Shown piece by piece: positions 437-64,000 of a stretch of 64,000 nucleotides of DNA. Origin of the DNA: Eledone cirrhosa (taxonomy: Eukaryota). The stretch's first letter is position 1. Each line of letters starts with the position of its first letter. Under the pieces are notes generated by a model. The model was not told the DNA's origin, made no database searches, and saw only the letters and a list, made by a program, of their open reading frames with translations. The stretch is from contig OZ024756.1 of NCBI GenBank assembly GCA_964016885.1, positions 33,790,001-33,854,000 on the forward strand, written 5' to 3'. Both the position numbers and the translations under genes were made by a program.

Positions 437-646
437 AACAAAGGAATTGTGGTAAGGAACCAGATGGACCATAACGCACCAGAGTACTCAATGCGTAGTA
501 GAGTGGGAAATAGGAAAAAGTATGACCCCGACGGCAGAGCTCAAGCCGTTTCGACGGCTATTTTTGGACTCGAAATAGCCGTCGAAATAGTCCAGAAATA
601 GCCGTCGAAACGGCTTGAGCTCTGCCGTCGGGGTCATACTTTTTCC

Positions 647-648
<2 letters not shown>
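437..648. mobile_element. Family A fold-back element in (TA)n, carrying the 3' half of a hammerhead (Penelope-like pLTR-type)
   Basis: Inverted arms 511-570 and 589-648. Contains GAAAcggc-ttgagctct-gccgTC (stem III plus GUC site). (TA)n on both sides; several other copies in the window. Confidence 0.75.
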
Positions 649-5998: not shown

Positions 5999-6115
5999 AA
6001 TATATACATGTACATATACATATGTATATATGTGTATATATATAAACATGTATATACACTTTTAAATATGTATATATATATATTGAATTAGTATCGGTTT
6101 TTGTACTTTATAATT

Positions 6116-6186
6116 ATTGTTTCTACTTTAGGCACAAGGCCAGCAATTACCCAGTGCATTACTGGTACTTTATTTTATCGACCCAG
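6116..6186 (-). mobile_element. SINE family S1, 3' fragment
   Basis: Reverse complement of gtcgataaaataaagtaccagtaatgcactgggtaattgctggccttgtgcctaaagtagaaacaat. Confidence 0.85.
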
Positions 6187-6265
6187 TACTTTATAATTAT
6201 ATGTGATTGTTTATGAAGTTAGTGTAATATTAAATACAAATAAATCCGATGTGTATGTATGTACG

Positions 6266-6608: not shown

Positions 6609-8376
6609 GTATATATATAAGTATGTATGTATATATATAAGTATGTATGTATGTATGTATCTGTGTGTTTATACACATATGCATATAGATATTTATTTGT
6701 ATATACGCACATATACATTATATTTATTTCTATGTGAGACACTTTGTGTGTGTTTCCTCTTCGGTCATATGAATATGTTATATGATTAAAGTAATTAAGA
6801 ATAAGCGTTAATTACACGATCTGAATAGCGACCTCTCGTTGAATTATTACGATATAGTCGAAATTCCTTGTCCAAATCAATTAACCACATAACAATGATA
6901 CTTTGCTCAATAAATAAACAACCTACACATGAAAATAAATATTTGTTTTTCCTTTATCCAAAGACAATTTGTTACATTCAATCACGATTTTCTAATCTAA
7001 AAATATATACAAAATTATTATAAAAATAAATTTGAAAAGAAAAGTTGTATATTCATGGGAAATTGATAGCGTGTTGTGCTTGCTGTATGAAAACCAATAG
7101 TTTACTTATGAATTCGATAACTCTTTCTTTCGTTTTTTTTTTTTTATTATTTTATTTTTTGCAATTCCAGAACAATTGACAAATATTTTATGAAATATAT
7201 TGAAGTTTCGAAATGGAATATTGATTTGAAATATTTTAAAGTTTTTTTTTTCTACTTATGAATAGTATGATTGGTGCTTGGTGCTAACATACTTACTGTA
7301 AAGAGGCAAGAAATATTTTTATTGAAAATTATATATATCCGTATTGTGGGGAGATAATTATTAGCTTAGACCTTTCATTATCGTATTTCTAATGAAAGAC
7401 ACTGCTGATGATTTTCAAATCATTTTTTAAATAATCAACACTTGGAAGAGTGTATTAATGTAACTAACTTCCTAACAATTAAGATGTATTTTGAACATCA
7501 TTTAACAAAGTTTCTTTCATAATATTATGATGGATATCTTTTTTTTATTTAGATAAATATAGTTATTTTAAAATGAACAATTTCGATTCAAAGAATCGGA
7601 GGCAGTTTCAAGTAGATTGCTCTCAAATGAGTTAATAAAACATTCTTGTGTAAACTTGGCCGCGTAAACAATTGAAACATTTTACTTAATTAAAATTCGT
7701 TATCACTACTAAGCATCTGGTGTTACAATAATGTTTCAATGCGTTATATATTGGGGTATAAGTAAATTGGTAGATGTTTCTATTAATTAATTATAAAGGA
7801 CTTTCCACCCACGACTCTCTGTCAATGAGGACATCGCTGGCATCTTAGATGTTGCCTCAATTAATGAATGGATTGCCGGCTGTCTCATTATTAAGAAAAA
7901 TAAATAGAAATAGAAATTATATAAATTTTACTCAGAATCTGTAGGTCAACACAGGGTGTTGCGATTTGGAATTAACTTTGAAGCCACAGCTTTACTAGAA
8001 AAGATTGCAACACCGTGTGCAATGTATAAGAGTTAAATATTTATGATTTAGAATGAAGTATAGCATGGAATTATCATCATCATCATCATCCGGTGGCCTC
8101 AGCCGGAATTGGACTCAACAATTGAACGCGCGTGGGTCTGTTGTTCATTGTCGTTGCCAAGTCCTGGCTTTCAATACCAGAATCTCTAGAGATGGTATCA
8201 GAGTAGAAGAACTTGCGTCCCCTGTTATTAGTGACTGATTGTGGTTTCCAAAGCATTAATGGGGACACAGCCTCACCGACAGCTGTTTAAGCAACGGAAC
8301 AACCTACTCATAAAATTAACACGTAAGTGGCTGAGCATTTCACATAAACGTTTCACCTTTATTATAACTGTCAATG

Positions 8377-8526
8377 CTTTGCAGCATGGAGTTACGGACC
8401 TTTACGAACTGAGTTCAAATCCTGCCGAAGTCAACTTTGCCTTTCATCCTTACGGGGTCGATAAAATAAAGTACCAGTAATGCACTGAGATAATTGCTGG
8501 CCTTGTGCCAAAAGTAGAAACAATTA
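8377..8526 (+). mobile_element. SINE family S1 (5'-truncated)
   Basis: B-box gagttcaaatcc, central gcctttcatccttacggggtcgataaaataaagtacc, tail agtagaaacaatta. Confidence 0.85.
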
Positions 8527-10500
8527 TAACCGTCAATGAGATTCAGCGTGGCACAGAGTGCAACACAACTGGTCTTTTGTTATTACAGTTTCAAGCCTTC
8601 TGCTAGGCTTCCAAACAAGTTCCGCCTATCTAGTTTTACTCACAAGGCTTGAATGAACCCGAGACTGTGGGAAATGGTACTTGCTCTAGATGCTACGCAA
8701 TGGGATCAAACTCAGGACTTAATGATTGCGAACCGGGATTCTTAAATATTCGGCCATATTGCATCTAGTAATAAGGAGATAATAACTCGATGTTAAACTG
8801 CGTATATGATGCGAGGTTTAACGATTCTTTTTGGAATAGTAATGGTTCATTTTTAGCCATGATATGTTTTTTGTTGTTTTGCAATTTCAATGAAATAGTT
8901 TGAAATGTGAGCCAAGTAATATTTTATACACCAACTATAATTAATTTGGTGTTTCATTGATGCCGATATAGAGATATTTAGACCTATATTTTCTGATAAC
9001 CAACCACTGTTGAAAGATTATGATATCGTTCTAAAAATCATTGCTTATCATGCAAACATTCATGTCGAAAATGATTAATATTCAGTCAGATGAGAAGTAT
9101 CATAAAAATGACAGATTACAATTTTTGTTCATTTTATATTTATATATATACTTATAAGATAACGCTGTTCTTTTTAAATCTTATAGTATACAAGCAAAAT
9201 TGACCAGAAATTTCTCTACCACTCTTTCTCTCACTGTCAATTACGTATTTTAAGCGATATTTATTAGACCGTATCAGAATCGAATTTCAGTTCTTAAGAG
9301 TACTACATATTTTATCTTCTACTTTTTTTTTATATATTTCACGCCCGATAATTATAACTACTCATATCTCGCTACAGATGTCTGTGTTTATAATCAATGG
9401 TGAACGTTTCTGTGATATTGGTCAATTATTCTTGCTTATAATTTGCTTCTAAACATCGGATCAATTCTAACTGACTTCCCTACACTAAACCGCTCCTACG
9501 TAATTGTATACATAGACAGTGTAATTGCGTATTTTTTTTTCAATTAGGTTATCTACTGCTATATCACAGTACACATTGCAATGTACACTATCGGTATATT
9601 TCAATTTTACGCTGATAATGTAGTTTAATTTAGTAGTATGTTTGAATGTTGCCTTTAAGCTGAAGATTTTGCCAAGTGGAAAATAACCAGCATGGAGGCA
9701 ATTCTTTAAATTGTAAATGACAAATATATTTCTTTTCTTTATTATTCAATCAATGTATGAACTACAGCACTCATAAGAATTTCCAAGATCTTTTATGGAT
9801 CATTTATTGTAACGATTGAAAGACAGATATTTGGGGACGGCCATATACGCCACCAGAAACCCAGTATTAACAATTGCTTCAAAACCATTTTCAGGGCAGA
9901 AGTGAAGAAATATTACACAAAGCAAATTCTCTCCCGACAACGCCAAAGACTCCACTGGTCATAAGACTGCAACTCTTCATCGCTTAACAAGGGATATAGG
10001 CCAATGTGCGATTGCTGGCCATGAAAACATTTACACTGTACGGCAGCTACCTTCTGCTTGATTAATTGATTGATTAATTGATATAGGTGGAAGGGAAGGT
10101 GAAATATATGATATGATCGGTAAGCTAGTTCCAATTCTTGCAGTGCAGTGGATTCTAGTAACTACAAGGACCGGGTAAAAGCGTGAAACTAGGCGATAAG
10201 TTAAGCCGACCTCTCCTCAATGTCAATTTAAATATCTAGTTGCCCATTCGGCATGACTATAAAGTGGATGTTGATCTTCCGCCTCAGAACATGTCTGATT
10301 TAGCATAAATATAATCAAAGAAAATCCAACTCTGAACATCAGACTTCGTTCCAGGCATAGATATTTCACACCCGACTACATAATCCAATATGTCCGTCCT
10401 CCTTAGGGGTGGTTTGACTGAAATGTAGTTGCTATATCTATCTAGAAGACTGTGCGACCATAAAAAGTGTCTGTAGTTGATTAAATTGGTAAATAGATAG

Positions 10501-11305: not shown

Positions 11306-11491
11306 TAATTGTTTCTATTTTAGGCACAAGGACAGCAATTACTCAGTACATTACTGGTACTTTATTTATCGACCCCGTAATAATGAAAGGCAAAGTTAAC
11401 TTCGGCCGGATTTGAACTCAGATCGTAGAGGGGACGTAACTATGCTGGAAAGCATGTCCGACCCTCTACCGATACTGCCAACTCACCGCCC
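11306..11491 (-). mobile_element. SINE family S1, full length
   Basis: A-box tggcagtatcgg and B-box gagttcaaatcc on the minus strand. gtgttagata occurs on both sides (probable TSD). Confidence 0.9.
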
Positions 11492-11750
11492 TTGTGTTAG
11501 ATATAATATGAGAAAATTACACAATATATTCATATTGTGTAATGAAGTTAAATAGTAAAATTAAGTTAAATTAAATGATTATTATAAGACAGTATCTTGT
11601 GGTTAATTAAATTAAATCTAACTTAATTTTCTCTATTCATTTTACTTTGCATTAGTAATGTATTGTGTAGTTCTGTTACTCAACCTCTCAATTCATGAAT
11701 TTTTCACTTCAATTACATTTGTGTTATTGCTACACACACACACACATATA

Positions 11751-12006: not shown

Positions 12007-12008
<2 letters not shown>

Positions 12009-12092
12009 CGAAGGAAGTGTGGTAAGGAACCAGATGGACCATAACGCACCAAAGTACTCAATACTTAGGGTAGTAGAGTGGGTAATAGGAAC
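12007..12092 (-). mobile_element. Family A long-arm fragment abutting (TA)n
   Basis: Nearly identical to 45037-45122. Confidence 0.8.
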
Positions 12093-13877: not shown

Positions 13878-14054
13878 AAATAACAGATTAAAGTTTAAGC
13901 AAAGAATCGCTGCTTTCACTCTTAAAGCAGCGATTCTTTGCTTAAACTTTAATCTGTTGTTTTAATAAGAAATATGCTTTACGGTTTTATATATTTTATA
14001 TATATATATTATCCTTATCGAGCCCTCTGCGGATTTTTGTCTTCACATTTATTA
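13878..14054. mobile_element. Family B fold-back element in (TA)n
   Basis: Arms 13878-13917 and 13924-13963, with the long arm continuing to 14054. The junction lies in hammerhead stem II. Confidence 0.8.
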
Positions 14055-14063
14055 TATATATAT

Positions 14064-14348
14064 AAAGTCTAAAGTATGTCTTAAGACAGAAGGCTCACTT
14101 GGCCGGTGTTTATCCCGGTTACATGTCGTGAAGCGACTGAGAGTACAAGGCTACCCCCCTGGACAAGACGATAGGCCATCACAGCGTTAAACCCCCAGCT
14201 ATTGCTGCTACTCATTTGCAGCTGAGTATACTGGAGCAACGTGAAATGAAGTGTTTTGCTCAAGAACACAACACGTAACCCAGGAATCGAGCCCACGACA
14301 TTATGATCGTAAGTCCAACACGCTTACCACGAGACCGCGTGCCTCCAC
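14064..14348 (-). mobile_element. tRNA-derived SINE family S2, full length
   Basis: tRNA-like head (ggtctcgtggtaagcg...gggctcgattcc), central gttcttgagcaaaacacttcatttcacgttgctccag, short tandem actttag tail. Confidence 0.8.
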
Positions 14349-14349
14349 T

Positions 14350-15927
<1,578 letters not shown>

Positions 15928-16212
15928 AGTGGAGGCACGCGGTCTCGTGGTAAGCGTGTTGGACTTACGATCATAATGTCGTGGGCTCGATTCCTGGGTT
16001 ACGTGTTGTGTTCTTGAGCAAAACACTTCATTTCACGTTGCTCCAGTATACTCAGCTGCAAATGAGTAGCAGCAATAGCTGGGGGTTTAACGCTGTGATG
16101 GCCTATCGTCTTGTCCAGGGGGGTAGCCTTGTACTCTCAGTCGCTTCACGACATGTAACCGGGATAAACACCGGCCAAGTGAGCCTTCTGTCTTAAGACA
16201 TACTTTAGACTT
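15928..16212 (+). mobile_element. SINE family S2 (copy within the inverted duplication)
   Basis: Reverse complement of 14064-14348. Confidence 0.8.
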
Positions 16213-16325
16213 TATATATATATAATAAATGTGAAGACAAAAATCCGCAGAGGGCTCGATAAGGATAATATATATATATAAAATATATAAAACCGTAAAG
16301 CATATTTCTTATTAAAACAACAGAT

Positions 16326-27116: not shown

Positions 27117-27855
27117 TAGTTTTATATATATATATATATTGTGTATATATATATAATAACTGAACTGTATATTTACAGGTCAGTAGTTACCGAGTAGTGT
27201 GTTTTCTATTACTTTAATACGTTGTGGATATTTTCTGAAATATCTTTGCGTTACAAAAAGGAACAGAACTAAGAACATTCAAACATATACCTTGTAATTA
27301 CTGATGAAGGGATAATACAACATGATAAATATGTGATAACTACAGGTTATATCAAGATCACATGATCGCTATTATATGAGGGTTGATGATATACAAGTTC
27401 AGAGTTACATTAAATTGTCTGCCAGTCTATAATTTATACTAAGATTCCCTCTATTTCTGATCTATACATATTTTATTAACTGTAGAATATATATCCATAA
27501 TTTATTCAGTCCTCTTATTAGTTTCATATCCAAATATATGGGTGCTGGATTGGCAGAATTGCTACAGGGTTTAACGAAATGCTTTGCAAGTTATTTTATT
27601 TCTGAGCTCAAATGTTGTTCAAGTTAAGTCTGCTCTTTAATACTTCTGGAGTCGATAAAATAAAGTACCAATTATGTACTGTGATGGATATAATCGGCTG
27701 TTCCCTTCCCACAAAATTAGAAACCATTATATCCAAATGCAGATGGTAAAATACATGAATTAAATTGTTATTCAACGTCAGGCATTGGTGGGTCAAGCGA
27801 TTGTTATCTGAAGTTAAAGATATATATATATATATATATAGTAATAATAATAATA

Positions 27856-27888
<33 letters not shown>

Positions 27889-27889
<1 letters not shown>

Positions 27890-28342
27890 GACCTGATATA
27901 ATATTGAAGGACTTTCAAAGGAGGGTATGCCTGCTAATTGATATGTCTGTTCCAATAGACAAGAATGTATCTATAAAAACATTTGAAAAATTGAGCAAGT
28001 ATAAGGACCTGGAGATAGAAATTGGAAAAATGTGGAAATTGAGAACTAAAACAATACCAGTGGTTGTAGGCGCTCTGGGAATGATACCTAAGGGGTCTAA
28101 CGACTACTTATCGCAAATCCCAGGAAACCCGCGTATAGGAGAAATACAAAAGATAGTACTAATGGGAACTGCCCATATACTAAGGAAGATCCTGTCAATA
28201 TAAGTACATCACAAGTCTAAACACTAAGGATGCATGTGTGAATATGTGTGTTCTTTCTTGAACATGGCGGACCTTGTTGTCTCTTGAGGTCACTGGTTGT
28301 GACTTGGTGATAACTCGTATAAACATAAAGCAAGATAAATGC
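27889..28342 (+). mobile_element. R4/Dong-clade non-LTR retrotransposon, 5'-truncated (restriction-like endonuclease end plus 3' UTR) in (TAA)n
   Basis: Open frame RPDIILKD...LIDMSVP...EKLSKYKDL...PVVVGALG...LMGTAHILRKILSI* (27889-28203) carries the PD-(D/E)xK RLE pattern. (AAT)n on both sides, the known Dong target. Confidence 0.85.
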
Positions 28343-28369
28343 AAATAATAATAATAATAATAGTAATAA

Positions 28370-28454
28370 TAATAAATTTGAAGACTAAAATCCAAAGACT
28401 AAAATCCGGTTAAGGGTGAAAGCAGCGATTCTTTGCTTAAACTTTAATCTGTTA

Positions 28455-28460
<6 letters not shown>
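28370..28460. mobile_element. Family B rearranged short copy
   Basis: The distal end (taataaatttgaagactaaaatcc) is joined in opposite orientation to ccggttaagggtGAAAgcagcg...ttattttaa, then (TA)n. Confidence 0.75.
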
Positions 28461-28499
<39 letters not shown>

Positions 28500-28501
<2 letters not shown>

Positions 28502-28616
28502 CAAAGAGCGTGTGGTAAGATACCAGGTGGACCATAACTCACCAGAGTACTCAATACTTAGGGTAGTAGAGTGGGTAACAGCTGAGCTCCGGACGTTTCG
28601 ACATCTAGATCCGAAC

Positions 28617-28663
<47 letters not shown>

Positions 28664-28846
28664 AACCAGTAAGACCCCGACAGCTGAGCTCAAGCCGTTT
28701 CGACGGCTAATTCTGGAATTAGCCGTCGAAACGGCTTGAGCTCAGCTGTCGGGGTCTTACTGGTTCCTATTACCCACTCTACTACCTCAAGTATTGAGTA
28801 CTTTGGTGCGTTATGGTCCACCTGGTTCCTTACCACATTTCCTTCG

Positions 28847-28849
<3 letters not shown>
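28500..28849. mobile_element. Two family A pieces separated by (TA)n
   Basis: 28500-28617 is a long-arm variant. 28660-28849 is a fold-back centred on ctaattctggaattag. Confidence 0.8.
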
Positions 28850-30889: not shown

Positions 30890-32071
30890 GATATAAAGAT
30901 GTAATGTGGGATTTGACCTGAGAGACCAGAAAGCCGAAATAGATATTGCAAGTTATTATATTCGATGTTCTAACGTCTGTACCAATTCAACAGTTTTTAT
31001 TTTAAACCAGATCAAAAATACTTTGTAAATCATATTTTTATTTAAATCAGCTATCTCACTCAAGGAAGTTAATACAACTACTTCAAGAAAACGAAAACTA
31101 ATATAAGGAAGCTCATTGCGAAACTATTTACATTTCAATAGCTTAACAATCTCGGCAATGTTTTATGCATGAAATTTCACTTAGAGTAGAATAATTAATG
31201 GCATAATTGAATAGATTCCTCTGATTTCAATTTACAGTTTTATTAGTTTTACAAATTAAAACTTATATCAGAATCATATTTATGGTTTCGAAATACTAAT
31301 TTCATATTTTATTTTTTCGACGAATCATTTTAGTTTCCCATTAGATATTTAAACGGTTTCTTTATAAATAATTTCCCAATTCAGTTATATAAATTGAATT
31401 TGCATATTTATTTATTAATGTATTTGTTTATTTATTTATTCATTTGTAAACTAGATAACACATGTGTATCGAATGTGTGCCCATCACTCAATCGTTCTAT
31501 TCAGAAGTGTAAATTTGAATTTAAGCGTAAGTTTGAATACTTAAGCGGAAGTCTTGATATGTTTATGCCATGTCATGGTAAGGGCGCTTAAATGCTGATG
31601 GAATCACTAGAGACACTATCTTTTTCAGAGACGTAAAAAACAGAGAGAGGGGGAGGAAGAATTGACCCCAATATTAAATTGGTAATTTATATTTATCGAA
31701 CTCGAACAACTTAACATAATACTGATAAGGTGAGTCACTAAATATTATATTTTAATAACCTATATATGGTTCTGACGAGCTATCTTCAGTATTGCGGGCT
31801 TTCTTTTTCCTTCCAAATTATGTACTCTTATTTGCACACACACACACACACACGCATACATACGCTTATGTACACACAAGCACACAAACACCCCCATACA
31901 CAGAAACACAAACCCAAACACACAATCACACATACATACATACATATATACATATATATATAGAATAAGGAAAAGCGAAGTAGTTCGCTTTTCCTTATTC
32001 GATATTTACTCCGTCACTCCTATGTGGAAAAAGTACGTTGAGTGCTTGAATTGAATTGCATCAATGTTTAC

Positions 32072-32118
<47 letters not shown>

Positions 32119-42574: not shown

Positions 42575-42765
42575 TAGGAAAAAGTATGACCCCGACGGCA
42601 GAGCTCAAGCCGTTTCGACAGCTATTTCTGGACTCAGTCCAGAAATAGCCGTCGAAACAGCTTGAGCTCTGCCGTCGGAGTCATACTTTTTCCTATTTCC
42701 CACTCTACTACCCTAAGTATTGAGTACTCTGGTGCGTTATGGTCCATTACCACAATTCCTTTGTT
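42575..42765. mobile_element. Family A fold-back element in (TA)n
   Basis: 60-bp arms centred on ggactcagtcc; the long arm ends ...cctttgtt followed by (TA)n. Confidence 0.8.
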
Positions 42766-44785: not shown

Positions 44786-44788
<3 letters not shown>

Positions 44789-45000
44789 ATAATAATAAAT
44801 GTGAAGACTAAAATCCAAAGAGGGCTTGATAAGGATAAATATATATCAAATGTATAACAAACGTAGAGCAAATATTTATTAAAATAACAGATTAAAGTTT
44901 AAGCAAAGAATCGCTGCTTTCACCCTTAACGGGATCTTCAGAAGATCCCGTTAAGGGTGAAAGCACCGATTCTTTGCTTAAACTTTAATCTGTTATTTTA

Positions 45001-45006
<6 letters not shown>
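44786..45006. mobile_element. Family B fold-back element; palindrome axis (44940) lies in the hammerhead core
   Basis: ~66-bp arms around gggatcttc-a-gaagatccc. Minus strand reads CTGAAGA-tcccgttaagggt-GAAA-gca...tgc-TT-aaact. Confidence 0.8.
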
Positions 45007-45036
<30 letters not shown>

Positions 45037-45038
<2 letters not shown>

Positions 45039-45256
45039 CGAAGGAAATGTGGTAAGGAACCAGGTGGACCATAACGCACCAAAGTACTCAATACTTGAGG
45101 TAGTAGAGTGGGTAATAGGAACCAGTAAGACCCCGACAGCTGAGCTCAAGCCGTTTCGACGGCTAATTCTGGACTCAGAATTCTGGACGGCTAATTCTGG
45201 AGTCCAGAATTAGCCGTCGAAACGGCTTGAGCTCAGCTGTCGGGGTCTTACTGGTT

Positions 45257-45260
<4 letters not shown>
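45037..45260. mobile_element. Family A fold-back element in (TA)n
   Basis: Arms ~45116-45176 and 45200-45260, with scrambled junction filler derived from the element itself. Confidence 0.8.
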
Positions 45261-46569: not shown

Positions 46570-46749
46570 GGCAGTATCGGTAGAGGGTCGGACGCCATGC
46601 TTTGACGCAAAGAGTTACCTCCCTTTACGATCTGAGTTCAAATCCCGCCAAGGTTAACTTTGCCTTTCATCCTTACGGGATCGATAAAATAAAGTACCAG
46701 TAATGCACTGGGTAATTGCTGGCCTTGTGCCTAACGTAGAAACAATTAT
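46570..46749 (+). mobile_element. SINE family S1
   Basis: A/B boxes and tail; TSD ttatctaacat. Confidence 0.9.
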
Positions 46750-46848
46750 CTAACATGCATGTATATAGTAACGGTTATCACTATCAGCATGGATTTATCC
46801 GCTATGACTAAAACAAACTAAACCAAGTACAGAACCTTTATTTGTATA

Positions 46849-47031
46849 ATAATTGTTTCTACTTTAGGCACAAGGCCAGCAATTACCCAGTGCATTACTG
46901 GTACTTTATTTTATCGACCCCGTAAGGATGAAAGGCAAAGTCAACCTCGGCGGGATTTGAACTCAGATCGTAAAGGGACGTAACTATGCTGGAAAGCATG
47001 GCGTCCGACCCTCTACCGATACTGCCAATCC
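46849..47031 (-). mobile_element. SINE family S1
   Basis: Full-length copy inverted relative to 46570-46749. Confidence 0.9.
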
Positions 47032-47591
47032 AGTATAATAATGATACGGATAAGCATATTTGTTTTAAAAGGAATTTTTTGGTGAGTAAGAACAGTGAAA
47101 TAATATATCTCATCTTAAAATGTTTTTAAATTCTCAGATCTGACAGATATGAAGGGTAAATGAGAAAGATAAACTAAAATAAAATAAAATGAAAATGGCT
47201 GAGTGGATCCACATCGTACACTACACACAGTGCTTTGTTCAATACTAAACTGACCCAAGATGACTCATACGTTACAACTGAAATTTGGTCATGCCATGAG
47301 AGTATGTTGGTTTTCCTATGAACCTTTCAGCAGACTCTCCTGGTTTCTTGAGAAATAGTAAGGTAGATTAAGTAGTTCATATTACTTAAATTAAAGAAGT
47401 TAATATTACTAAATATACCGAATGCTTCGTGGTATTCGTTCCAGCTCTCGGTGTGCTAAGTTCAAATCCCGTTATGGTCAAATTTGTTTTTCATCCTTTC
47501 GGCGTCGTTAAAAAAATGTGCCAGTACAGTACTGGATTCGATTCTTCATATACTGTACCGATTGTGTTGTTATTTCTGTTTACCTTTTACG

Positions 47592-48938: not shown

Positions 48939-49408
48939 TCTCTCTCTCCCGCTCTCCCGCTCTCTCTCTCACACTCTGCGATACAGCAAACGCTATTCGT
49001 TATACAGTTACCAAAATATGATAATTTCTAATTCATAAGTCTTTATTTATGGCGGAAATATAACAAAACAAGCCAAACGCAAACATGTTCAATATCAACC
49101 ATTTCTGACGTAAATATTGTCTACACAAAGAAAAACCATTCTGTGAATAATACATCCCAATGTTTTTTGTGAGAGTGTGTGTGGTGTGTGTGTTTTTTTT
49201 GCAAGGAAATATATATTCCATCATATATTTCAATAATTCAACGGACGGACCTGTACTGGTGAAATACTCCATCTATTTTCATACTCGTTTAATTATGTAA
49301 AATCAATCTTTCATTCTTTCTCTTTGCAAGATCTAACAAACAATAACAAAACAAAACAAAAATCAGCAAAAAATAATTGAAATAAATAAATCAATTAAAC
49401 GTATAAAA

Positions 49409-49773
49409 TAATTGTTTCTACTTTTGGCACAAGGCCAGCAATTACTCAATGCATTACTGGTACTTTATTCTATCGACCCCGGAAGGATGAAAGGCAAAGT
49501 TAACCTCGGCGGGATTTGAACTCAGATCATACAGGGAGGTAAACGTATAAAATAATGGTTTCTTATATAGGCACAAGGCCAGCAATTTTGGGGGATGGGT
49601 AAAGTCGATTAAATCGACTCCAGTGTGTGACTGGTACTTTATTTTATCGACCCCGTAAGGATGAAAGGCATAGTTAATCTCGGCGGGATTGGAACTCAGA
49701 CCGTAAAGGACCGTAACTCTATGCTGCAAAGCATGACATCCGACCTTCTACCGATACTACCAATCCACCGCCC
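49409..49773 (-). mobile_element. Two SINE S1 copies (short truncated plus long variant)
   Basis: aaacgtataaaa precedes both tails; central domains present. Confidence 0.85.
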
Positions 49774-49835
49774 AATAATGTATAAAATAATAATAATGAA
49801 AATTCTGCATTTTATAATTTTTTATTATCATTATA

Positions 49836-50244
49836 GATTGGCAGTATCGGTAGAGGGTCAGGCACCATGCTTTCCAGCATAGTTACGTCCCTTTACGGTC
49901 TGAGTTCAAATCCCGCCGAGGTTAATTTTGCCTTTCATCTTTACGGGATCGATAAAATAAGGTACCAGTAATACATTGGGGTCGATTTAATCGACTTTCC
50001 TCTCCCCCAAAATTGCTGGCCTTGTGCGCATATAAGAAACCATTATTATTATTATTATTATTATTATTGGCAGTATCAGTAGAGGGTCGGACACCATGAT
50101 TTGACGCATAGAGCTACGGCCCTTGCTATTCTGAGTTCAAATACCGCCGAGGTTAACTTTGCCTTTCATCTTTACAGGGTCTATAAAATAAAGTACCAGT
50201 AATACACTGATATAATTGCTGGCCTTGTGCCAAAAGTAGAAACA

Positions 50245-50249
<5 letters not shown>
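49836..50249 (+). mobile_element. Two SINE S1 copies with (ATT)n tails
   Basis: 49836-50045 (long variant) and 50068-50249. Confidence 0.85.
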
Positions 50250-50295
<46 letters not shown>

Positions 50296-50341
50296 GTTGT
50301 TGTTGTTGGTGTTGGATTTGTTGTTGTTGTTGTTTTTATTA

Positions 50342-63569: not shown

Positions 63570-63868
63570 ATTAATTCAAAATATTAACAAAAATAGACAT
63601 TCGTGTGATCAAGTATATTTTATTATACATATTTCACAGGTACCGAGCTATCTTCAACAGTACGTCCTCATCAGATAAAATAAGATGATGCATGACATAC
63701 CCTGACTTAGTAGATGGTTAAGATTCAGTCATGATTGATCACACGAATGTCTATTTTTGTTAATATTTTGAATTAATATTAATAACTCCGAAAAACCAAA
63801 CTGTTGAGTGCTTCCAATCTATTGTAAAACTCATTCTTTGATTTATTCATTGAACCTTGTTTAACTTT

Positions 63869-63870
<2 letters not shown>
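63570..63870. mobile_element. Family E fold-back element in (TA)n
   Basis: ~44-bp inverted arms (~63569-63612, ~63736-63779) enclose the hammerhead; the right arm continues to (TA)n near 63872. Confidence 0.75.
63616..63682 (-). ncRNA. Type I hammerhead ribozyme (family E)
   Basis: Minus strand: tattttat-CTGATGA-ggacgtactg...cggtacctgt-GAAA-tatgta-TA-ataaaata. Perfect 8-bp stem I, intact core, stem III as in family D; proximal stem II is weak. Confidence 0.7.
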
Positions 63871-63900
<30 letters not shown>

Positions 63901-63904
<4 letters not shown>

Positions 63905-64000
63905 AGTAAGTAAGACCCCGACGGCTGAGCTCAAGCCGTTTCGACGACTGACGACTAATTCTGTACGAATTAGCCGTTTCGACGGCTAATTCTGTACGAA
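63901..64000 (-). mobile_element. Family A variant, short arm and junction (runs off the window)
   Basis: taggagtaagtaagaccccgacggctgagctcaagccgtttcgac... directly after (TA)n. Confidence 0.75.

Follow-up and report, generated by a model that had tools for sequence, protein, structure and literature searches.

Fold-back insertions of a Hydra-clade Penelope-like retrotransposon in Eledone cirrhosa pair one short with one long end, probably through priming of one RNA by both target strands

Introduction

Penelope-like retrotransposons (PLEs) of the Hydra clade have a single ORF with a C-terminal GIY-YIG endonuclease (EN) domain and a (TA)n target, and their copies show a pLTR hammerhead, partial tandems, an inverted 5'-truncated copy and a tail confined to one end (Craig et al., 2021, PMC8557442). 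The motifs listed for the clade are RWK, DKT, a CxCx5C linker, and CxxC and CxH around the E and N of the C-terminal EN; the sections of that study devoted to these elements give neither a pairing rule for the ends nor a pLTR-only mini class. Head-to-head inverted pLTRs, palindromes at the junctions, an optional one-sided tail and solo pLTRs acting in trans were also described for the Penelope elements of Adineta vaga (PMC3846280). The origin of the inverted repeats and of the one-sided tail in PLEs is stated as open (PMC8557442, PMC11167929).

PAc, the Poseidon element of Anolis, cuts and extends both target strands in vitro, and the two internal positions of the RNA at which it starts are the borders of the tail; a dimer is predicted (Frangieh et al., 2024, PMC11167929). 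The steps past first-strand synthesis, and the use of one RNA by both ends, were left open in that study. Animal non-LTR retrozymes are non-coding, hammerhead-related and PLE-derived, and are built of tandem units with whole ribozymes (10.64898/2026.07.22.740005, PMC7229834).

In the present study, fold-back insertions in a 64-kb stretch of Eledone cirrhosa DNA (the window) were compared with loci fetched from the genome. The kind of element and its structure are known, and the genomic evidence that it offers on mechanism is unusually clean. We propose, with a probability of about 0.65, that in the fold-backs of this (TA)n-targeting PLE both cut target strands prime one RNA at two TAT sites, and that the resulting cDNAs are joined head to head.

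Materials and Methods

Element positions are numbered from the A at L089:4849 (+1), L089 being the parent locus. The best matches to the window copy (L002-L030) are biased in shape and were kept separate as the 'best' set. Loci L031-L100 were chosen by an exact 21-mer (+14 to +34), which is blind to ends and partners but enriches for arms that are young and less truncated. Position-blind tiles make up L101-L120 and L159-L198, and L129-L158 were chosen for family B. The ORF-bearing loci L199-L235 are 37 of the best 40 matches to the reverse-transcriptase (RT) region; the other three were L089 itself, one sharing a locus, and one on a small contig, which was left out. Overlapping loci were de-duplicated via flanking sequence, and a few duplicates may persist. 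Counts of pair types and of mixed subfamilies refer to the fetched loci only.

Results

Four fold-backs of one family (family A) lie in the window, and each of them (4/4) forms a palindrome of unequal arms that differ by 71-80 nt, of which the shorter stops at TTCC and both run into (TA)n. The first spans 438-646 and is flanked by (TA)n at 414-437 and 647-672 (unstranded). Its long arm (+1 to +138) occupies 438-570 on the minus strand, with an unpaired 'tail' at 438-512 that has a 5-nt deletion in this copy; an unstranded junction insert of 18 nt (571-588), which copies element positions near +7 to +22, leads to the short arm (+1 to +58) at 589-646 on the plus strand. The second, at 28662-28847, has a short arm from +3 on the minus strand and a long arm from +7 on the plus strand, with a 2-nt overlap. 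Both arms start at +1 in the third (42577-42764, insert of 1 nt) and in the fourth (45038-45258, templated insert of 25 nt at 45176-45200). All four had been described in an initial annotation of this DNA and are real, although its coordinates took in a few extra TA bases.

Partial copies of family A were also found. A long-end stub (+54 to +138) lies at 12008-12092 on the minus strand with no partner arm seen, and a single long-ended arm of a diverged subfamily sits between two TA runs at 28501-28617, also on the minus strand. At 63903-64000 a minus-strand short arm with reiterated junction sequence is cut by the window end, and the next tile (L111) opens with a long-ended arm of the same variant.

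Other families in the window follow the same plan. The family B fold-back at 44786-45004 has its long end on the left (44786), its short end on the right (45004) and a 90-nt tail. Two insertions of other families, 31963-32074 (short arm left, 74-nt tail right) and 63572-63871 (two arms, short end left, 88-nt tail right), follow the short/long pattern of family A, and on its minus strand the latter has a complete hammerhead core, at 63674. The same end pattern was read by eye in the 30 further family B loci, which had been picked by their long end; the view that family B behaves like family A is thereby upheld. One of these loci, L148, carries a similar piece of ORF. In L129-L158, family B showed a hammerhead-like core CAGAAGA where CUGANGA would be the form for comparison, and its arms reach upstream more variably than those of the family A minis.

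Several further repeats were observed in the window. An insertion between TA runs at 216-412 is partly palindromic, contains a GAAAC motif and probably represents another PLE-end family. A 714-nt insertion between TA runs (2251-2964) has inverted arms of 244 nt and holds a 52-nt direct repeat (2257-2308 and 2673-2724). An inverted duplication of 402 nt with 99.5% identity (13952-14353 and 15924-16325) encloses about 1.5 kb of degenerate TA repeat and includes part of a family B element. At 27841-28459, a non-LTR retrotransposon-like ORF is represented by its 3' end, with (TAA)n; next come a family B stub and two family A elements, in that order, as insertions nested in one microsatellite. A SINE-like repeat of 150-200 nt is abundant (6104-6188, 8374-8527, 11306-11495 and about 20 more) and often clustered, inverted or in tandem (46570-47046, 49400-50300).

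The arm 21-mer has 56,898 exact matches in the 3.0-Gb genome, against 0 for a reversed control pattern. Since 600 kb of position-blind tiles held 54 arms alongside 30 exact 21-mer matches, the genome total is estimated at about 100,000 arms, i.e. 28,000-50,000 insertions.

The family A sequence is continuous with a reverse-transcriptase ORF, which is intact in the parent locus L089 (786 codons). The order in L089 is (TA)n, an inverted long-ended arm of 830 nt, a partial upstream unit, the pLTR with tail, the 786-codon frame, the 3' UTR, and finally a pLTR that is short-ended and passes into (TA)n. The L089 protein (P0001) contains RWR, DKT, CNCPDRSIC (CxCx5C), CNLC (CxxC) and CKH (CxH), and YRDD together with, at the C terminus, the GIY-YIG-like VIYQC...AYIG were read by eye; a Pfam and PDB sequence search with this protein gave no match. 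At least 40 near-identical copies of the RT region are present in the genome. An inverted terminal arm was found in 26 of the 37 ORF loci as well as in L089, and partial, pLTR-forming tandems in L211, L230 and L089. Minis and ORF-bearing copies alike have (TA)n as target. The tail is on one arm only, with 80 nt in family A and 74-90 nt in the other window families compared with 30-40 nt in the published Hydra clade, and the unit is about 3.55 kb compared with generally <3 kb (PMC8557442). Family A also differs from the clade as published in having RWR for RWK, a U3-A8 hammerhead and a loop II of about 38 nt.

By motifs, target and structure, the four fold-backs are classed as minimal insertions (minis) of a Hydra-clade PLE. 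An inverted pLTR with a one-sided tail is an already known PLE signature (PMC3846280, PMC8557442), which the initial annotation did not recognise. Beside a family A element, L074:456-2597 holds a second, unrelated frame of 714 codons ending in a GIY-YIG-like region, which probably belongs to another PLE clade.

In long arms, stems I-III of a putative hammerhead were read by eye. Its U3-A8 core occupies -43 to -37, with position 7 varying among G, T and A; loop II, of about 38 nt, contains +1; and the 3' half comprises GAAA (+19 to +22), a loop 3 that is palindromic, and GUC (+39 to +41). An Rfam search returned no hammerhead match to the motif; the U3-A8 variant has already been described (PMC4209133). 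Placing the 5' core directly before +1 was rejected, as none of the 8 matches had the upstream sequence of the parent, and the core is that at -43 to -37. The predicted fold of RNA from +1 to +162 is not unusual (z 0.20). Minis start downstream of the 5' half of the core and so carry the 3' half of the hammerhead only. Retrozymes are recognised by head-to-tail tandems with a whole type I hammerhead in each unit, whereas the minis are head to head and have half a ribozyme.

Arms of family A end at two fixed sites, the short end at +58 and the long end at +138, and in the parent each is followed by TAT. Loci sampled without regard to their ends gave 157 arms, and the distance from the anchor to the start of the first TA run was 12 nt in 63 of these and 92 nt in 50; most of the others were within a few nt of these values or carried small indels. 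When the set was enlarged to 221 arms, the long site accounted for 107 and the short site for 100, with 14 ending otherwise. The end-points are fixed and not random, as the initial annotation had held.

The two kinds of end are combined in one way. Of 82 head-to-head pairs, 70 were long with short, 5 broken long with short, 3 long with another end and 1 long with ORF, while short with short was never seen (0/82) and no convincing pair was long with long. The remaining 3 were scored as long with 'broken long'; by eye, one had an arm cut by the locus edge and two had short ends followed by a different microsatellite. The script left a further 57 arms unpaired, several of them with partners too short or too distant for it. 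Opposite end types were likewise found in all 27 two-armed ORF-bearing insertions (26 ORF loci and L089), three with imperfect ends, and the ORF-bearing arm was long-ended in 15 and short-ended in 12.

The junctions between the arms vary. Among 55, 17 had an overlap of 1-2 nt, 13 were blunt and 25 had inserts, and 53 of the 55 junction strings were distinct, the youngest copies included. Of 16 inserts of at least 5 nt, 15 share a 5-mer with the element ends, in a loose test without control. Junctions are thus made anew in each insertion, which bears out the earlier suggestion that two cDNAs are joined head to head.

Two further explanations have to be weighed against these junctions. Minis could be retrocopies of 'master' RNAs that already form a hairpin, with a single primer extended past the apex and the ends inherited; a few junction types do recur (one of them 4 times in 55), as do the same 5-nt inserts in the 'best' set. 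But nearly all junctions differ even among the youngest copies, and the long insertions keep the end rule with junctions that are all different, so this origin seems quite improbable to us. A MITE, or another kind of DNA transposon bounded by terminal inverted repeats, would also be short, abundant, palindromic and flanked by TA. It would leave one invariant hairpin, and what was found instead are asymmetric ends, a variable apex and a sequence that continues into a reverse-transcriptase ORF; because of the varying junctions and the retroelement parent, it has hardly any chance of being correct.

Truncation was compared in 72 pairs, in which the short arm was the more truncated in 15 and the long arm in 23, with 34 within 2 nt. 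Five pairs (L038, L061, L070, L072 and L095) share no sequence at all: their long arm stops at +89 to +115 and is joined to the short arm. Some of the truncations could instead stem from deletions that arose later at the apex of the palindrome; no increase of truncation with the divergence of the arms was seen (Spearman -0.09, p 0.45, n 67). Since either arm can be the more truncated and five pairs do not overlap, the arms are better read as two independent cDNAs. At L190:9310-9581, a short and a long arm near +1 are joined via about 136 nt that include an RT-coding piece, an apparent template jump.

Self-priming was proposed for the A. vaga Penelope elements, where an antisense template is invoked (PMC3846280), and EN resolution is the source given for the tail in the Hydra-clade report (PMC8557442). 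For family A, a single cDNA would snap back and copy itself, and the second end would be set by EN cleavage or by microhomology at the other site. Identical arms would result at once, and the symmetric apices of the long insertions L218 and L224, whose two arms begin at one shared coordinate, would be explained. However, the short arm should then always start 3' of the long arm, which was seen in 15 pairs against 23 with the reverse, and snap-back can produce neither the five pairs without shared sequence nor those long insertions in which the starts of the two arms are separated by hundreds of nt. We therefore consider it rather improbable; the data favour two target primers. That both target strands prime, as had been suggested initially, agrees with fixed ends each followed by TAT and with non-overlapping pairs that self-priming cannot make.

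The arms of L1 twin-priming products are not known to overlap, and the initial annotation had set these fold-backs apart from L1 on the ground that their arms duplicate the same sequence. Overlap is indeed usual, but five insertions share no sequence, and the contrast was overstated because such non-overlapping pairs occur. L1 twin priming is similar in its second priming at the target and in the joining of cDNAs by microhomology, which gives an inversion (PMC10760644); family A differs in that most insertions turn out this way, with two internal start sites that do not vary and with arms that mostly overlap, giving a palindrome.

Both arms were then compared for their source. Mini pairs were identical over 12 diagnostic nt in 35 of 55 cases compared with 6.6 on shuffling, and no clear chimera between subfamilies was seen by eye in 67 aligned pairs. 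The periods of activity may have differed among subfamilies, and a shared source is therefore better tested in the young long copies. In 19 long insertions the arms agreed at 346 of 354 informative sites (239.7 expected). Among 18 inverted arms of at least 400 nt, the nearest sequence was that of their own partner in 13, and the partner ranked second in 3, sixth in 1 (L203) and last in 1 (L206); these two outliers agree with their partners at all their informative sites. In L230, a 716-nt deletion is present in the inverted arm, the internal copy and the 3' copy, and in no other fetched locus. In the end-blind sample, 159 of 184 arms reaching +12 stop within -8 to +12, against none of 23 partners of ORF-bearing arms. 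Both arms carry one source haplotype and share a template class.

Close inverted repeats can convert each other, and the arms are such repeats, so two RNAs drawn at random from the cell pool might have given arms that became alike later. In a three-way comparison over 3,353 sites, however, the odd one out was the inverted arm at 10 sites, the 3' copy at 7 and the internal copy at 4. The inverted arm is not more homogenised than the direct copies, which speaks against gene conversion; nor is it tied to the internal copy, a further point against snap-back. Conversion would also leave unexplained the strict pairing of ends and the partners of long arms that never stop at +1, and we give it very little credence.

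A single RNA and a pair of RNAs from one locus would look alike in genome sequence. Two such RNAs, as a co-transcriptional pair or a ribozyme dimer, could be primed at +58 and +138 on an asymmetric protein dimer. Full overlap of the arms would then need no strand displacement, the shared haplotype would be compatible, and PLE hammerheads are described as dimer-type with a palindromic loop 3 (PMC4209133), a loop that is present in family A. The rank of the partners of L206 and L203 and the 8 of 354 sites at which arms disagree also count against a single RNA. On the other side, the absence of like-ended pairs would need an extra rule of asymmetry. Pairing through the ribozyme in particular, which the initial annotation had favoured, is not borne out: ends that are strictly one short and one long are not predicted by a symmetric RNA dimer, minis are without the 5' half of the ribozyme, and since the palindromic loop is common to the subfamilies, mixed pairs should form, yet no clear one was seen. 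Two RNAs from one locus thus appear unlikely to us, and priming of one RNA by both target strands is preferred.

The arms of minis pile up near +1, and many extend 1-4 nt or more upstream of it. In the parent, a TATA-like motif at -29, weaker in some subfamilies, precedes +1, and the +1 region resembles an arthropod-type initiator. A cap-derived G was more frequent in a first comparison (p 0.004 and 0.002), in which T was excluded by construction; with a fair control the difference was not significant, at 9/15 against 2/10 (p 0.10) and, in the best-hit set, 7/15 against 4/11 (p 0.70). None of the 37 ORF-bearing copies starts at +1, so the template of long copies does not begin there. Among the readings considered, a transcript start is the likeliest for the apex near +1; in D. 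virilis Penelope an internal promoter lies in this part of the element (PMC2377424).

Three other causes of the apex were rejected. Hammerhead cleavage would cut after +41, whereas arms cluster near +1; a generic RT pause at +1 conflicts with long arms that read past it (0/23 stop); and a splice acceptor at +2 does not fit junctions that, by eye, show no constant upstream exon. Five long arms stop at -955 to -958 (inverted arms in L204, L232 and L234, main arms in L226 and L227), near L089 position 3892, where a motif like that at +1 lies beside a C-rich tract (G-rich in cDNA); this is either a second transcript start or an RT stop. Other recurrent stops were at -657, -135 and +128.

Discussion

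In the mechanism that we prefer, the GIY-YIG domain of the element would nick both strands of the (TA)n target, as has been shown in vitro for another PLE, PAc (PMC11167929). The target 3' ends would pair with the TAT sites after +58 and +138 of a single RNA template, and since the arms overlap, the long cDNA would have to displace the short cDNA in the overlap. The two cDNA 3' ends may then be joined by short microhomology with templated fill-in, a polymerase-theta-like process, and each cDNA would template the second strand of the other. Minis would come from short RNAs beginning near +1, driven by a likely promoter inside the pLTR and mobilised in trans, and long insertions from RNAs that start further upstream. 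As each RNA has one +58 and one +138 site and each would be used once, the pairing rule and the shared haplotype would follow without extra assumptions.

PAc is similar to family A in that both strands are cut and extended, two start sites bound the tail, the target is AT-rich and ribozyme cleavage is not needed (PMC11167929). It belongs to another clade, and its start sites are without homology to the target, whereas both family A sites match theirs by TAT; this difference counts against our reading. So does the fact that PAc showed no strand difference in start site, in an assay that did not address pairing within one event.

More tentatively, and at somewhat less than even odds, we suggest for Hydra-clade PLEs in general that twin priming is the rule, that the cDNAs cross-prime each other, that this process directly yields both the inverted pLTR and the tail, and that pLTR-only RNAs renew fold-backs by themselves. 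A search of titles and abstract openings, mostly without subscription journals, found no same-RNA twin-priming model for PLEs; files S1 and S2 of Craig et al. (2021) may hold family A and its ribozyme.

Family A offers a large natural record of insertions with one +58 end, one +138 end and the same source. Because there is a young parent whose ORF is open, and because the smallest RNA needed is only about 140 nt long, the question of mechanism becomes directly testable by experiment. The reading also provides a way in which the second strand could be made without being primed separately, and an estimated 28,000-50,000 palindromes that repeat annotators could label as MITEs are reassigned. If the more general suggestion is true, two sites 80 nt apart would serve one target end each, and tens of thousands of non-coding fold-backs would form a self-renewing class in the genome of E. 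cirrhosa.
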